A stretch of 64,000 bases of DNA, from positions 462,334-526,333 of the forward strand of contig CANMBU010000003.1 in the NCBI GenBank assembly GCA_947496175.1, given 5' to 3'. The stretch's first letter is position 1, and every line of letters begins with the position of its first letter. The stretch comes from an uncultured Roseovarius sp. Its GTDB lineage: Bacteria; Pseudomonadota; Alphaproteobacteria; Rhodobacterales; Rhodobacteraceae. The notes under the pieces were generated by a model. The model had not been told where the DNA came from. It saw only the letters and a program-made list of their open reading frames with translations, and ran no database searches. Position numbers and translations under genes: made by a program. Below are positions 1,374 to 22,960 of the stretch, piece by piece.

Positions 1374-3826
1374 TACGCCTTTTGAAAGGCTTACTCCTCT
1401 TGTTGGCCTTGGCGTTTTGCGCCGCCGCGCCTCTTTTGATGCAGGCGGAAAGCGCACAGGCGCAATCCGCACCGCAACTGTCTGAGGCGGAACCAAACTA
1501 TGACAGATGGATCCGGACAGCTGACCGTGCGGATGAGGCGATTGAAGCCGCGCGCGCGTCGACCACAGCGCTTGAAGCCCTGCGCGAAGACCTCGCCAGC
1601 TGGAGACAGCAGTTTCTTGACGCACAAAGCATCAACAGCAACGCGCTCGCCACTGTGCGCCGACAGATCAGTGATCTGGGTCCCGTGCCCGAAGAGGGAG
1701 AAGAACCACAAGATGTCGCCGCCAATCGCCAATTGTTGCAGGACCGTTTCGACCGATTGAATGCGCCTGTTCTGCGCGCCGAACTGGCCTTCAGCAGAGC
1801 GGATGGGCTTATCCGCGGTATTGATAAGATCATTCGTGATCGACAGGCCGAGGAATTGCTGGAATTTGGGCCATCACCTCTGAACCCAACGCATTGGGCA
1901 GCGGGTTTAGCGGCGCTGCCTGCGACACTGACACAGCTTTCCGGAGAGGTGTCCAAAGCCTGGCGCAACCCGGTTCAGTCCGCCGAAACCAAAAACAGTC
2001 TGCCGATCGTTGCGGTTTTGACTCTGCTTGGCCTCATCCTCGTGTCGCGCGGCAGGGTCTGGAGCCGCCGCTTAACCAACCGCGTGCTGGGAGAAAGCCC
2101 AGGTCCCGGCCTTTGGATCACGGGGTTCCTTGTCTCTCTTGGCAGTTTGGTTCTGCCTTTCGTTGGAATACTGCTGCTGATTGAGGCCGTCGTTTCCACC
2201 GGGCTTGTCGGGTTGCGCGGGGATCAGCTTCTTGCCGCTTTTGTACCCGCTGCGTTTGCCTTTCTTCTTGCGCGCTGGCTGGCCACCCGGGTGTTCCCAG
2301 CCGATGAAGCACGAACGCTGCCTTTGGTTCTGGACGCGACACAGAGGTCCCGGGGACGTTTCTTTGGCGCTTGTCTGGGACTGGTCGCCGCTACCGCAGT
2401 GTTCTTGCGTGATGTCGGTGACATTTCCGGTTGGAGTGAGGCGGCCACGAATGTGGTGGTATTCCCTGTGCTGGTTATGTCCAGCTTCTTTCTCTGGCGC
2501 TTGGCGAATCTGCTCCGCGTGCATGTCCGCAACTCATCCGAAGCCGACGGTGAGGAAAGCTATAGGACCAAACTCATCAGTGTGCTGGCTGTTGGTCTGG
2601 TCGTGCTGGCCTTTGTCTCTCCGCTTCTCGCAGCCATTGGGTACTTCCGACTGGCTGAATCTCTCATGCTGCCATCACTGGCGTCGCTTGAGATGCTGGC
2701 CGTGCTACTGGTGCTGCAACGTCTGGTGGTCGAGGTGTTTGTTCTGATCACGGGAAACCGGGAAGGGGCCGCGGAGTCCCTGGTTCCGATCCTGATCGGC
2801 TTTCTGCTGGTTTTGGCCTCGCTGCCAGTCTTTGCTCTGATCTGGGGGGCCAGAGTTGCGGATCTAACCGAGCTTTGGACGCAGGTGCTAGACGGGATCA
2901 GCATTGGCGGCGTGCGTGTCTCGCCGATGATCTTCCTCACCTTCGCGCTGGTCTTTGTGCTGGGGTATCTGGCGACGCGCATGGTGCAGGGAGCGCTGAA
3001 GAACACCATCCTGCCCAAGACGCGCATCGATGCCGGGGGGCGCAATGCGATTGTATCGGGTGTTGGGTATCTCGGTATATTCCTGGCGGCGGTTATCGCG
3101 ATCACAAGTGCCGGGATTGACCTCAGTTCCATCGCAATTGTCGCCGGTGCGCTGTCTGTGGGTATTGGTTTTGGCCTGCAAAACATTGTGTCGAACTTTG
3201 TTTCTGGCATCATTCTTTTGATTGAACGGCCCATTTCCGAAGGTGACTGGATCGAGGTGGGTGGTGTGCATGGCACGGTGCGCGATATTTCGGTGCGCTC
3301 CACCATCATTCAGACCTTTGATCGTTCAGATGTCATCGTGCCCAACTCTGATCTCGTCAGTGGCAGGGTAACAAACTACACCCGCGGCAACACTGTGGGG
3401 CGGGTCATTGTGCCCGTGGGCGTGGCCTATGGGACCGATACAAAGAAAGTGGAGGGCATCCTGCAAGAGGTGGCGGATGCGCATCCTCTGGTGCTGATGA
3501 ACCCACCGCCCGCTGTTCTTTTCCGGTCCTTCGGAGCTTCGTCGCTTGATTTCGAAATCCGCGCCATTTTACGCGATGTGAACTACGTGATGTCGGTGCA
3601 TTCCGAGATGAACCACGAGATTGCCAAACGGTTCGAGGAAGAAGGGATCGAAGTGCCCTTCTCGCAGCGCGACATCTGGATCCGCAACCCCGAGGCATTG
3701 CCGCAGACCCAAGCGGAGCAGACACAGGCCAACGAGTCCAAACCCAAAGACATGTCCGATCATATCACACCCGAGGATCTGGATGCTGGCAAAGGGGACG
3801 CGGATGGTGATGGAGGCGGGCGATGA
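1370..3826 (+). CDS. Large MscS-family mechanosensitive channel with periplasmic N-terminal domain
   Basis: ATGA overlap with cysK stop; multiple TM segments; GALSVGIGFGLQNIVSNFVSG and GDWIEV MscS motifs. Confidence 0.9.
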   Translation: MIRLLKGLLLLLALAFCAAAPLLMQAESAQAQSAPQLSEAEPNYDRWIRTADRADEAIEAARASTTALEALREDLASWRQQFLDAQSINSNALATVRRQISDLGPVPEEGEEPQDVAANRQLLQDRFDRLNAPVLRAELAFSRADGLIRGIDKIIRDRQAEELLEFGPSPLNPTHWAAGLAALPATLTQLSGEVSKAWRNPVQSAETKNSLPIVAVLTLLGLILVSRGRVWSRRLTNRVLGESPGPGLWITGFLVSLGSLVLPFVGILLLIEAVVSTGLVGLRGDQLLAAFVPAAFAFLLARWLATRVFPADEARTLPLVLDATQRSRGRFFGACLGLVAATAVFLRDVGDISGWSEAATNVVVFPVLVMSSFFLWRLANLLRVHVRNSSEADGEESYRTKLISVLAVGLVVLAFVSPLLAAIGYFRLAESLMLPSLASLEMLAVLLVLQRLVVEVFVLITGNREGAAESLVPILIGFLLVLASLPVFALIWGARVADLTELWTQVLDGISIGGVRVSPMIFLTFALVFVLGYLATRMVQGALKNTILPKTRIDAGGRNAIVSGVGYLGIFLAAVIAITSAGIDLSSIAIVAGALSVGIGFGLQNIVSNFVSGIILLIERPISEGDWIEVGGVHGTVRDISVRSTIIQTFDRSDVIVPNSDLVSGRVTNYTRGNTVGRVIVPVGVAYGTDTKKVEGILQEVADAHPLVLMNPPPAVLFRSFGASSLDFEIRAILRDVNYVMSVHSEMNHEIAKRFEEEGIEVPFSQRDIWIRNPEALPQTQAEQTQANESKPKDMSDHITPEDLDAGKGDADGDGGGR

Positions 3827-18820: not shown

Positions 18821-18837
18821 AACCTTTGGGAATCATT

Positions 18838-19197
18838 ATGGACTTTGAAAATTTAACAGAAGATCAACTTCGCGCTCTAGAAGAATTAGGGGAAGAATTG
18901 GAAAAAGTTTCCTGGCAGCCTGAAACTATTCCGATGAAGCCGTATGGATTGGGGAAAAAGATCAGTAATGCGAAACTGCTCGCGATAAACTACGTCAATG
19001 AAAACCGTGAGGAAATGCAAAAGCATGTTTGCAAAGACAATGCGGTAAAGATTGAGATACAAGCTGCCGGCGCCAGTACAGCAACAGTCGCTGACGCCTT
19101 TCAGGCCATGGCAGGTGCACCAATACCAGTTTGGAATCTAGCAAATGTCGTATGTATGTTAGGTCTCGGTAAATTTTGCCAATGGAAGGCAAAGTAA
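18838..19197 (+). CDS. Hypothetical protein divergent from the S8 peptidase
   Basis: 119-aa ORF; acidic N-terminus; small-residue/hydrophobic C-terminus (..VVCMLGLGKFC). Confidence 0.7.
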   Translation: MDFENLTEDQLRALEELGEELEKVSWQPETIPMKPYGLGKKISNAKLLAINYVNENREEMQKHVCKDNAVKIEIQAAGASTATVADAFQAMAGAPIPVWNLANVVCMLGLGKFCQWKAK

Positions 19198-19237: not shown

Positions 19238-19858
19238 CTAAACCACCGCCACCTTGTTTACCGCCCGTATGATCGTTTGCGGTGACAACTCTAACTCTTC
19301 TGCCAACTCATCGACAGACGCCATCCCCGAATGCAGTCTTTCCTTTAGGATCGGCACCACCTCCGGCGGAATAGCCCTGGGCCTGCCAATATGCACACCC
19401 CTGGCACGGGCGGCTTCCATCCCTGCCTTGGTGCGTTCGCGGATTTGCTCGCGCTCAAACTCTGCAAACACGGCCAATTGACCATATAGCAATCGTCCAA
19501 TGGATGTGGTGGTGTCGATCCTTTGGGTGAGGGCTATGAAGTCCACGCCATTCTCGCGCAGATCTTCGAGAAGTTGTAGGAGGTGCAGCACAGATCGGCT
19601 GAGACGATCCAGTTTCCACACTACCAGCGTGTCGCCGGAACCAAGCTCTCCTAGGAGTGTTTCGAGCGAGCATCGATCTTTGATAGCGCCTGAGACGCCC
19701 AAGTCACCATAGATGGTATCGCACCCTGCCTCTTTGAGCGCATCCACCTGTAGAGCCTCAGATTGGTCAGCGTCCGACACGCGGACATAACCGATTTTGC
19801 GCCCTTTTGGTCTAAGCTCTTGTTTGGACTCTGTGTTTCTCTGTTGAGGTTTGTTCAT
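19238..19858 (-). CDS. Small serine recombinase (Hin/Pin-type invertase/resolvase)
   Basis: IGYVRVS..Q catalytic Ser, LVVWKLDRLSRS, IDTTT..GRL, ERT.AGM.AAR..G..GRP, C-terminal HTH. Confidence 0.93.
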   Translation of the reverse strand: MNKPQQRNTESKQELRPKGRKIGYVRVSDADQSEALQVDALKEAGCDTIYGDLGVSGAIKDRCSLETLLGELGSGDTLVVWKLDRLSRSVLHLLQLLEDLRENGVDFIALTQRIDTTTSIGRLLYGQLAVFAEFEREQIRERTKAGMEAARARGVHIGRPRAIPPEVVPILKERLHSGMASVDELAEELELSPQTIIRAVNKVAVV

Positions 19859-19915
19859 TGGCTCAGTGTGCCACTTGAGTGGCTTCGTACAAGCGGAATT
19901 CATGGCATTTTCTCC

Positions 19916-20060
19916 TTGTCAAAAGGGGTCCCTTTGCGAAGCCGCTGAATCCGAGGTTTTGCGCGATCTCATTGATCCGAGATTTCTGTGGATAAACGGG
20001 GATTTGGTGCGTTTGCCCCGCCGCGTGGTAAGAGTTATCTAAAGGGACCCCTTTTGATGG
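19916..20060. repeat. Two inverted 26-bp hix-like recombination sites enclosing ~120 bp
   Basis: TTGTCAAAAGGG-GT-CCCTTTGCGAAG (19916-19941) and TTATCTAAAGGG-AC-CCCTTTTGATGG (20035-20060); perfect 17-bp inverted repeat 19919-19935/20041-20057. Confidence 0.75.
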
Positions 20061-20093
20061 GTGATTGGTTGCGAATGAAGACCGCATCATAGC

Positions 20094-20981
20094 TTGCCAA
20101 AGGGAGACCTCATGTCGTTCAAGTTACTATGCCAAACCGAACGTTTGTCGGTTCTTACTCTTGTTACTTGTCTTTTAATTCCTGCCACCGCCAATAGAAC
20201 CGAAGCACTTAGTGACCTGAGTGAACTCTGGCCTGCTCCCCTTTCGGTCGAAAGTAGCTTTGAGGGACTCGGCATTGATATCAAAGGCATCGCGATGACC
20301 ATGTCGATGAAAGAGGCGCAATCAGTTCATGGCGGTGATTTCTCGAATGCAATATGGCGGTTTCGCAATCAAAACCGCCTCTCCAAGGAGAAGGTAACCA
20401 GACAGGATGTCGGCAACCTGAAAGTCAAATTCGATCAACCTGGTGCCTACGATGACCTCCGCACATTAGGATCGCACTGGCACACAGGTAATCGCATGAT
20501 CCGTATGACAAGGGATGTCGAATTCTATGACGTCGACCGACAACCTTCGGCACAGAACTTCGTGGCATCTGTGATCGAAAAATATGGTACGCCTTCTAAC
20601 GGTCCATATCGTACCACGGGTAAATATCGCTATACGGTCAAACCGCATGAGGCGCGTCGATGGATGTTTGACAATGCGCAGCTCTCAACGACCTGCGAAG
20701 TCTACGATCTTCCCGTTGATCTCAAGGACGCAACACGGCTCAAGGAGGACAACCTGGAAGCCATCATTGCTGATCTTGAAACGCCTGAGGCTTGTGATGG
20801 ATACATGGAAATTTTGCATGAAATCACACCAGCATCCACTGTCAGCAAATATCGTATTCAAATCACCGATGTTCGATTGCTGATGATTGATGCACTCAAT
20901 GAACGGCGCGTCCAGGCAAATATGGAAGCCTACTTTGAAAGGGCTTTACAATCTGGCAACAAAAACACTCCGGACTTATGA
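20094..20981 (+). CDS. Secreted hypothetical protein
   Basis: 295-aa ORF with signal-like N-terminus (SVLTLVTCLLIPATA); likely start nearer 20112. Confidence 0.75.
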   Translation: MPKGDLMSFKLLCQTERLSVLTLVTCLLIPATANRTEALSDLSELWPAPLSVESSFEGLGIDIKGIAMTMSMKEAQSVHGGDFSNAIWRFRNQNRLSKEKVTRQDVGNLKVKFDQPGAYDDLRTLGSHWHTGNRMIRMTRDVEFYDVDRQPSAQNFVASVIEKYGTPSNGPYRTTGKYRYTVKPHEARRWMFDNAQLSTTCEVYDLPVDLKDATRLKEDNLEAIIADLETPEACDGYMEILHEITPASTVSKYRIQITDVRLLMIDALNERRVQANMEAYFERALQSGNKNTPDL

Positions 20982-21304: not shown

Positions 21305-22222
21305 ATGTTGAGGCTTCGAAAAACCAACGGTTTGAAAATCATTACAGCAATAATTTTTGCTGCGCTTTCAGCGCCTTCTCTGGCATTAGCTATGGAATGT
21401 AACCTGGACACGAGCTTCACACATAAGACCAAACACCATGGAAAACGTCCTGTTTACACAGATAAAAACTCTGTGTTTTTCACGGCACCAATGGCAGTGA
21501 ATACTGACGGTGCACCAATCTCGTACCACCCCGATGACCCATGGGGAAACACTGGTAAAGCAATTAACACGATTTGCAATGGAGCCAATGTGATCCTGCC
21601 AAACGGAAAAAAGATCAGGTATGATAAATGTACCAAACTTATTGAAGGTTTTAAGGAAGCAAAGGCATCCGGTTGGGAAAACAAAGCCACAGCAAGAATG
21701 GACTTCTATGGTATAGCCTCCTCGGGCTTTACTCCCTGCATAAATGACAAAGAGCCATACGAAGGATATTTTGTATCCACTACCTCGGTCATTGCAGACA
21801 AGTCGAAAGCGGTGTGCGATCAAGATAGATATCTTAATTCGATCGAAATACCGTTCGCAATTTATCCCGGTGCGAAAAAATTTACTTCACACGGCGTCGG
21901 AAAAAGAGACGTCGTTGTCTATTTCAATCCAGAAAACAGTGCGATCGAATTCGGGATAATAGGAGACCGTGGTCCAAAATGGGGACTTGCAGAAGGGTCA
22001 ATCGCTTTTGCCCAGTCTCTGAGACAAACCGACAGTCTTCCGACGTCGCGTAAAGACACATATAATTTTGGTGTTAGCAAGGTTCATGGGCTGATTTTGC
22101 CAAACGCTAGTTTAGAACCACCTTACACTGCCGAAAACGTAAGAACCCGAGCCAGAAACGAGTTTAACAACTGGGGAGGAATGGACCGCCTAAATGCATG
22201 CATTAAGCAGCATGGCGGTTAA
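21305..22222 (+). CDS. Secreted GH75 (chitosanase)-like glycoside hydrolase
   Basis: Signal peptide; AVNTDG, YLNSIEIPF and GIIGDRGP..AEGSIAFA resemble GH75 catalytic motifs. Confidence 0.6.
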   Translation: MLRLRKTNGLKIITAIIFAALSAPSLALAMECNLDTSFTHKTKHHGKRPVYTDKNSVFFTAPMAVNTDGAPISYHPDDPWGNTGKAINTICNGANVILPNGKKIRYDKCTKLIEGFKEAKASGWENKATARMDFYGIASSGFTPCINDKEPYEGYFVSTTSVIADKSKAVCDQDRYLNSIEIPFAIYPGAKKFTSHGVGKRDVVVYFNPENSAIEFGIIGDRGPKWGLAEGSIAFAQSLRQTDSLPTSRKDTYNFGVSKVHGLILPNASLEPPYTAENVRTRARNEFNNWGGMDRLNACIKQHGG

Positions 22223-22261
22223 ATTCCAAAGTAGCGCGGCTCATGTATGGGACATTTCTCA

Positions 22262-22960
22262 ATGAAGTTTTTAGTACTGTCTTTTTTTGTTTTCTTGGCG
22301 ATACCGTCTTCTGCAAAGGCTCAAGGTCTAAGAGATTTTATCAAAGAAACTATCAACGAAGCCGCTGGACCTCCTGGAAGGAGTTTTGGGGACAAGTCAC
22401 ATTTGATGGTTGTGAAAGCGGATGGGGGCGTCACATTTATCTTTCTTTGCAGCGCGGGCAAAGAGAATGGTGCGGGCGACAAATTGGTGAATGCAATTTT
22501 TGATGGACTGAACCAAGCGACCGCTGGTGTTTCTGTCTTTTTCAGATCTTGGATACGGAGAGAGATCGAAAAGGGTGTGGTAAACGAGGGCGATGCGTTC
22601 TGTGGTGTCTTTGCCAAAAAAACTGGTGGTAAGAGCAAAGCCAGGAATGTACGAGACGGCAGCATCTATACAACCTCGTGGCGAAATGGCGAGAAGGTTC
22701 AATCGGTAACTGATGAAAGGGCCTGTAAAAAAGTGCACAAGAGATACTTTTGTTTCGAAGTCGCCGAAGGGCCTTCGGATGACGGTGAAATCGACGGTGT
22801 AAGTGGATGCTTTGAAGCTAAAGTCGATGGGCGGCTGGTTTCCTTTTCGTTTGGCCGAGGAGAGACTATTCCGGTCGAAACACGAAGTACTTTCGGCCCT
22901 AAAGACTCAAAATCTTCAGAGGGTTGCGTGGTTCGAAAATTGGGCGTTGAAAAGAATTAG
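22262..22960 (+). CDS. Secreted Cys-containing hypothetical protein
   Basis: Signal peptide MKFLVLSFFVFLAIPSSAKA; six Cys; follows the GH75-like gene. Confidence 0.7.
   Translation: MKFLVLSFFVFLAIPSSAKAQGLRDFIKETINEAAGPPGRSFGDKSHLMVVKADGGVTFIFLCSAGKENGAGDKLVNAIFDGLNQATAGVSVFFRSWIRREIEKGVVNEGDAFCGVFAKKTGGKSKARNVRDGSIYTTSWRNGEKVQSVTDERACKKVHKRYFCFEVAEGPSDDGEIDGVSGCFEAKVDGRLVSFSFGRGETIPVETRSTFGPKDSKSSEGCVVRKLGVEKN

Follow-up and report, generated by a model that had tools for sequence, protein, structure and literature searches.

The serine invertases Hin and Gin are textbook enzymes that are thought to need kilobase-scale DNA loops and an enhancer bound by Fis, and residue H106 of Gin (H107 of Hin) is the classic site of mutants that act independently of Fis. 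Cleavage at the core followed by a 180-degree rotation of subunits is standard chemistry for serine recombinases. Mpi of Bacteroides fragilis is one global enzyme that serves many distant sites, with segments of ~170–230 bp. Its hix-like invertible polysaccharide promoters were reportedly described by Patrick et al. in 2003. One account of Hin describes the remote enhancer loop (PMC3798978), and Hin-H107Y figures as an activated mutant in another (PMC4817059). The res site of Tn3 is given as 114 bp with three dimer sites, its subsites differing in spacing, and res acts between directly repeated copies and deletes DNA (PMC2602789). Our study examined a window of 64 000 nt (the whole stretch of DNA analysed: contig CANMBU010000003.1 of assembly GCA_947496175.1, positions 462 334 to 526 333, forward strand; coordinates below are counted from its first nucleotide) from an uncultured Roseovarius sp., in which two inverted hix-like sites separate a Gin-like serine recombinase gene from a divergent gene for a secreted protein. 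With a probability of about 0.8, we read positions 19928–20048 as a site-specific invertible element that is flipped by this adjacent Gin/Hin-like recombinase.

The locus resembles the Hin/Gin/Cin/Pin group in its small serine recombinase with a C-terminal helix-turn-helix (HTH), for which Gin is the best structural relative. It shares with Hin and Gin the 26-bp sites of 12-2-12 layout, TCAAAA-type outer half-sites and asymmetric 2-bp cores in inverted orientation, and with Gin, Cin and Pin the position of the recombinase gene just outside the invertible segment. The segment itself is far smaller, at 119 bp (99–129 bp in relatives) with no gene inside it, compared to ~1–4 kb for Hin and Gin. 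Mpi is likewise a serine invertase with short, promoter-sized segments and hix-like inverted repeats, but here a single adjacent site pair accompanies each recombinase, the segment is ~100–130 bp and the modules occur on mobile elements in Proteobacteria. Tyrosine-recombinase invertons, such as fimS of Escherichia coli and those of the Bacteroidales, also consist of a short intergenic flip segment beside a recombinase and have a cargo rich in envelope and secreted proteins; both orientations coexist in their populations, as they may among relatives of the window's element. They differ from the present locus, which has a serine recombinase, a 2-bp core and presumptive subunit rotation, and in which palindromic 12-2-12 dimer sites take the place of simple inverted repeats. 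Finally, the sites fill a compact ~115–150 bp between divergent genes, one of them the recombinase gene, as at the res sites of Tn3 and gamma-delta and with ParA of RK2, a likeness from which autoregulation would be expected. In contrast to res, a single copy in the window contains two equal sites in inverted orientation, and what relatives show is inversion.

Crossover sites, core covariation and the recombinase

Both 12-2-12 sites, with their GT and AC cores, are present where the earlier note had placed them, as are the DnaA box and the promoter-like motif that it had described between them (Table 1). Each site is a near-palindrome, the core of site B being the reverse complement of that of site A, and the two share a perfect 17-nt inverted repeat (19919–19935 and 20041–20057). 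When up to three mismatches were allowed, this 17-mer had three matches in the window against 0.15 expected, a number reached in none of 100 shuffles. Sites A and B are the sole occurrences of AAAGGGRYCCCTTT (at most one mismatch) in the whole 3.85-Mb genome. They are ~93 bp apart, the core-to-core segment contains no plausible gene, and the outer end of site A overlaps the ribosome-binding site (RBS) of the recombinase gene (the reverse complement of 19912–19917 is AAGGAG). A third, partial site at 20092–20110 was considered and is most simply the ribosome-binding region of the cargo gene. The segment also holds a direct repeat, ATCCGAG(G/A)TTT, at 19949–19959 and 19975–19985, its copies 26 bp apart on one side of the DnaA-box-like motif; conservation of this repeat in relatives was not obvious.

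Table 1. Coordinates of the recombinase gene, its putative crossover sites and the neighbouring features in the window
Feature	Position	Strand	Sequence	Remarks
Small serine recombinase gene	19238–19903	−		221 aa from ATG 19903; C-terminal HTH
Site A, proximal crossover site (putative), hix-like 12-2-12	19916–19941		TTGTCAAAAGGG-GT-CCCTTTGCGAAG	Core GT at 19928–19929
Putative invertible segment, core to core	19928–20048			119 bp between core positions, ~11.3 helical turns
DnaA-box-like motif	19987–19995	−	TTATCCACA; TGTGGATAA	Geometric centre of segment; possible binding site for a host factor that bends DNA
Promoter-like motif (candidate, status uncertain)	20013–20041	+	TTGCCC-N17-TATCTA	−10 coincides with the inner half of site B; as assembled, directed towards the genes for secreted proteins
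Site B, distal crossover site (putative), 12-2-12	20035–20060		TTATCTAAAGGG-AC-CCCTTTTGATGG	Core AC at 20047–20048
Divergent cargo gene 1, signal-peptide protein	20113–20981	+		No Pfam family; ATG 52 nt beyond site B

In GTDB genomes, genes for relatives of the recombinase have both palindromes shortly upstream, and site A is conserved in all relatives. The two-site layout was found in 37 distinct related loci (33 matched by pattern and 4 more, L128–L131) from Alpha-, Beta- and Gammaproteobacteria and one planctomycete metagenome-assembled genome (MAG); L-numbers denote related loci, and X-numbers denote sequencing runs, mostly metagenomes. The pattern, AAAGGGNNCCCTTT-N90-120-AAAGGGNNCCCTTT, was blind to the protein and matched 36 metagenome loci and 6 genomes in an even sample of 401 from the host family. 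In every match with an adjacent recombinase homologue (41 loci, 33 distinct sequences) the two cores were reverse-complementary or symmetric, the pairs being GT/AC, TT/AA, AA/TT, GA/TC, TA/TA and AT/AT. Looser matches in Nitrosomonas, Nitrosospira, a gammaproteobacterial MAG and the planctomycete MAG added AG/CT and AC/GT, giving eight types in total. Pattern matches without a recombinase served as an internal control, and these mostly had direct cores (CC/CC three times, GG/GG, AG/AG and TT/TT). Strand exchange needs core orientation, whereas a symmetric dimer on an accessory site does not, and the covariation therefore points to recombination of the two sites with each other. As a comparison of sequences, these compensatory core changes are strong evidence that the two sites recombine together, and with the flipped forms seen in relatives they bear out the inversion geometry that the earlier note had recognized.

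The core-to-core spacing was found to cluster at 107, 116–119 and 125–129 bp, with one locus at 99 bp, corresponding to ~10, 11 and 12 helical turns. Clustering at whole turns would follow from a need for the sites to be face to face across a small loop. Three metagenome contigs (L089, L096 and L100) contain an AAAGGG-NN-CCCTTT pair whose cores are direct (CC/CC) and spaced by 122 bp, and no homologue of the recombinase was found close by; these pairs presumably belong to an unrelated repeat family. Genome G297, from the same family as the window, has three modules of recombinase and switch (L122, L126 and L127, on contigs C15, C16 and C58), two of them nearly identical with AT/AT cores and the third with TT/AA. 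Modules with different cores can thus coexist, and are perhaps insulated from one another by that difference.

The recombinase, which the earlier note had assigned to the Hin/Pin type, matches PF00239 (Resolvase, E 2e-42) and has the C-terminal HTH. The catalytic serine is Ser43, counted from ATG 19903, in IGYVRVSD, of which IGYVRVS aligns with the region of Gin S9. Among solved structures, the Gin invertase of phage Mu (4m6f/3uj3) comes closest, at E 1.5e-34, compared to E 8.6e-24 for gamma-delta resolvase and 1e-24 to 1e-22 for the gamma-delta and Tn3 resolvases overall; judged by these scores, the protein is nearer to Gin than to the resolvases. The NCBIfam family of Mpi gave a weak match (E 4.5e-11), far below the family cutoff. 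Where Gin and Hin have the regulatory histidine (H106 and H107, respectively), the window protein has Gly141.

The earlier note had measured 57 bp from the recombinase gene to the sites, a distance that holds if translation begins at ATG 19858. The start is most likely ATG 19903, only 12 nt from the end of site A, because relatives conserve in alignment the AAGGAG RBS, the matching ATG and a 15-codon N-terminal extension of fixed length. The equivalent upstream start is also annotated by the Prokaryotic Genome Annotation Pipeline (PGAP) in plasmid pP14_e. In recombinases of the close clade this extension (19859–19903, minus strand), ahead of the usual start, reads M-x-x-x-C-...-[Y/H/Q]-[D/T]-x-x-M, with Cys5 conserved and the length invariant. 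The stretch may be translated, or it may instead work as DNA, for example as an accessory site inside the 5' end of the gene.

The recurrence of the module on mobilisable elements beside relaxase genes, both in the window and on small plasmids, raises the question of whether the region is chiefly a res-type site for resolving multimers or cointegrates of a mobile element, local inversion being a tolerated by-product. Recombinase sites in a divergent promoter region are in general known from Tn3 res and RK2 par, and the earlier note had itself named res subsites for dimer resolution as the alternative to inversion. Resolution between copies, however, would leave the cores within one copy unconstrained, yet they are always reverse-complementary and covary. 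Only two equal 12-2-12 sites are present, not three that differ in geometry, and the copy in the window lies in the chromosome and has one pair of sites. A Gin-like protein and the frequency of inversion in natural samples (see below) also speak for an invertase. We regard resolution as the chief function as unlikely.

Flipped forms in relatives

Finished plasmids provide the two orientations in complete sequences. Plasmid unnamed4 of Roseivivax marinus (L129, NZ_CP090156.1) carries the common orientation, that of most assembled loci, and plasmids pP14_e of Phaeobacter piscinae (L130, NZ_CP010686.1) and p5 of Sulfitobacter pontiacus (L131) carry the flipped one. The inner segments of L129 and L130 are identical at 86 of 105 positions, but only as reverse complements (score 128, against 1 for the forward alignment and −12.5 ± 7.9 for shuffles), and both flanks align forward. 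Between these two plasmids the outer half-site variant AAAGGC keeps its place and the inner half-sites swap, which maps the exchange to within the core and the adjacent CCCTTT. A similar inversion was seen in the Shimia aestuarii isolate L004, where the inner segment matches those of L083 and L084 as their reverse complement and the flanking genes are collinear; the reverse-complement alignment of L004 with L083 scored 41, compared to −12.6 ± 9 and a maximum of 19 in 1000 shuffles. Relative to L004, metagenome contigs of X2, X3, X4 and X6 had the segment inverted between two collinear flanks, and the X2 contig showed 0 mismatches over 202 nt in this opposite orientation. An inner segment of fixed orientation had been considered on the basis of ~25 assemblies with constant orientation, and this was overturned by the contig and plasmid evidence.

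Searches of sequencing runs for the window's own sequence found it in the seawater metagenome X1 only; two runs of the same sample were empty. One X1 contig joins plus-strand 19988–20040 (0 mismatches) to the minus strand of 19935–19844 (9 mismatches), and a second joins the reverse complement of 19936–19950 to 20041–20175 (7 mismatches). Both junctions of the flipped form are thus represented, from a relative ~93 % identical in the flanks, with the joint at 19935/20040 on opposite strands.

Mixtures within samples were followed for L125, a clade-1 element; its recombinase and that of the window share 72.6 % identity. The whole flipped form was present within one 1039-nt contig of X33, flipped junctions were found in X32 and X34, and X25 and X44 had the common form. 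In X35 a normal proximal junction (depth 8.0) and a flipped distal junction (10.5) shared one inner variant, and in X29 the corresponding depths were 8.6 and 5.0. X38 contained all four junctions, the normal pair at depths of 2.1 and 2.0 and the flipped pair at 4.1 and 2.8. Two raw-read runs, X45 and X46, belong to a study that also contributed a carrier of L125, and the element was found in neither.

It could be argued that the opposite orientations are assembly errors at the inverted repeat, or products of RecA-dependent exchange between short repeats of different strains. The evidence from the older runs does consist of assembler contigs rather than raw reads, at low depths of 2–10. However, the exact repeats are 14–17 nt long, shorter than the word length of the Logan assemblies, which we take to be k = 31, and the joints should therefore not be repeat-collapse artefacts; repeats of this length are also poor substrates for RecA. 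The same joints recurred in at least 10 independent runs as well as in finished plasmids, the exchange maps to the core region and the covariation of cores needs a site-specific process, all of which leaves an artefactual origin very improbable.

Inversion might alternatively be real but of no consequence, the sites being purely autoregulatory operators at which a recombinase tetramer loops the promoter region and represses both genes, with inversions as rare accidents that play no role. Such a function would suit sites that bracket the whole divergent control region, the abutment of site A on the RBS, the helical phasing of the spacing and the single orientation of most assemblies. Non-matching cores would be the safest arrangement for operators of this kind, yet matching inverted cores have persisted through at least eight core changes. 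Both orientations were also found at comparable depth in single samples and differ between finished plasmids, and we consider a role as operators alone quite improbable.

A proposed inversion mechanism and points against it

If the segment is an invertible element, one recombinase dimer would bind each 26-bp site, and the DNA between the sites would form a loop of ~11 helical turns, allowing the two dimers to assemble into a tetramer. Staggered cuts would then be made at the GT/AC cores, and the inner subunit pair would rotate 180 degrees together with the small loop before the ends rejoin in the opposite orientation. The adjacent recombinase is the likely catalyst. A host factor at the central DnaA-box-like motif, which has no equivalent in Hin or Gin, might bend the loop in place of Fis; the apex is proposed for it because a bend at the segment centre would help most. 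The motif TTWTCCACA was found in 16 of 16 distinct clade-1 relatives, always 2.5–3.5 bp from the exact segment centre and uniformly oriented with respect to the recombinase gene, and it lies reversed in both flipped plasmids (L130 and L131).

Several observations weigh against reading the locus as an invertible switch. Approximately 34 of the 37 assembled loci are in the common orientation, a bias that suggests a preferred or self-stabilizing state and a switch that is biased or tightly regulated. Flipping in the window's own strain would be an extrapolation from its relatives, and the metagenome mixtures could in principle represent co-occurring strains with fixed orientations instead of switching within a clone. 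The Fis-bound enhancer that Hin and Gin need is not evident: the locus has no room for a remote enhancer loop of the Hin type, and a search of the genome with E. coli Fis found no stand-alone Fis, its matches lying only inside open reading frames of 501 and 481 aa that are presumably NtrC-type regulators. To our knowledge, a core-to-core distance of 119 bp is also shorter than any known serine-invertase segment. Lastly, a sigma-70 scan of 19800–20200 returned 0 promoters, and a position weight matrix (PWM) scan of 33 loci gave mean scores of 5.7 and 5.8 in the two directions with no conserved position. The earlier note had proposed a promoter in the segment that toggles the secreted-protein genes, and neither scan bore this out.

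Even so, the position of the flanking genes ties their control to the segment. In nearly all loci both genes start almost at the sites (with outer leaders of 12 nt and 52 nt in the window, and the divergent gene of relatives beginning ~40 nt past the distal site), and their promoter or operator elements must therefore be largely inside or across the switch. Flipping should accordingly exchange or toggle the elements that drive the recombinase gene on one side and the genes for secreted proteins on the other, and recombinase occupying sites A and B should act as an autoregulating repressor. The promoter-like motif of the window was its best cargo-facing PWM match (score 5.0), and by our reading of the alignment counterparts of the form TTGCNN-N17-TATCAA occur in only ~6–7 of 16 close relatives. 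In clade 2, a TTGAYT-N17-TTCAAW motif identified by eye faces the recombinase, and this has no good counterpart in clade 1.

Cargo, mobility and significance of the module

Cargo gene 1 is followed on the plus strand by two further genes for secreted proteins (21305–22222 and 22247–22960). No family was found at E ≤ 0.01 in Pfam or NCBIfam for the product of 21305–22222 or those of its two neighbours. The cargo genes of relatives fall into at least 23 unrelated clusters, mostly of membrane or secreted proteins and including one TbpB-like lipoprotein; Pfam searches with ten of these proteins gave almost no families. This range suits phase variation of envelope components. On the other side of the recombinase, the earlier note had extended the switch to the S8 peptidase gene, but a convergent plus-strand gene (18826–19197) intervenes between the two, making control of the peptidase by the switch unlikely.

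Genes for a relaxase, a VirD4-like coupling protein and a ParB-like protein lie near the module in the window, and on plasmids L129 and L130 a MobC/relaxase gene pair was found within ~1 kb of it. The switch seems to travel with mobilisable elements of the MOB type. Locus L128 (positions 2183–3591 of that locus), on Phaeobacter chromosome CP010756.1, has the same two-site layout, with TT/AA cores 129 bp apart, and next to it on the same strand, 92 nt downstream, are KwaA and KwaB of the Kiwa anti-phage system. A defence system might in this case be under the control of such a switch.

The site motif was not found in the papers searched, and searches on invertons in roseobacters, the DeepInverton paper included, yielded nothing specific and no account of phase-variable envelope and secreted proteins on mobile elements in this group. 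The window's module is a member of a family of very small DNA flip-switches that is widespread and apparently has not been described before, and what is new about it is the combination of an unusually short inverton, a genome without stand-alone Fis and a DnaA-box-like motif at the segment centre. A broader proposal, which we hold tentatively and at somewhat less than even odds, is that these are self-contained mini-invertons, each made up of a Gin-like recombinase and a 100–130-bp segment (~10–12 turns), that act free of Fis because a host factor at the segment centre (for the roseobacter clade, DnaA) loops the two sites in advance, reside on mobilisable elements and phase-vary the adjacent cargo, mostly envelope or secreted proteins and possibly defence systems such as Kiwa.

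In summary, if Fis-free flipping of a ~119-bp segment is correct, it would represent a different control of synapsis, through a short phased loop and a central site for a host factor. If DnaA takes that architectural role, switching would be coupled to the state of replication in the cell. Modules this compact (~0.8 kb), with a known site geometry and interchangeable cores, could serve as small genetic switches. For the organisms themselves, our findings point to phase variation of envelope and secreted proteins on mobile elements in abundant marine roseobacters, with both states coexisting in seawater according to the metagenome contigs.

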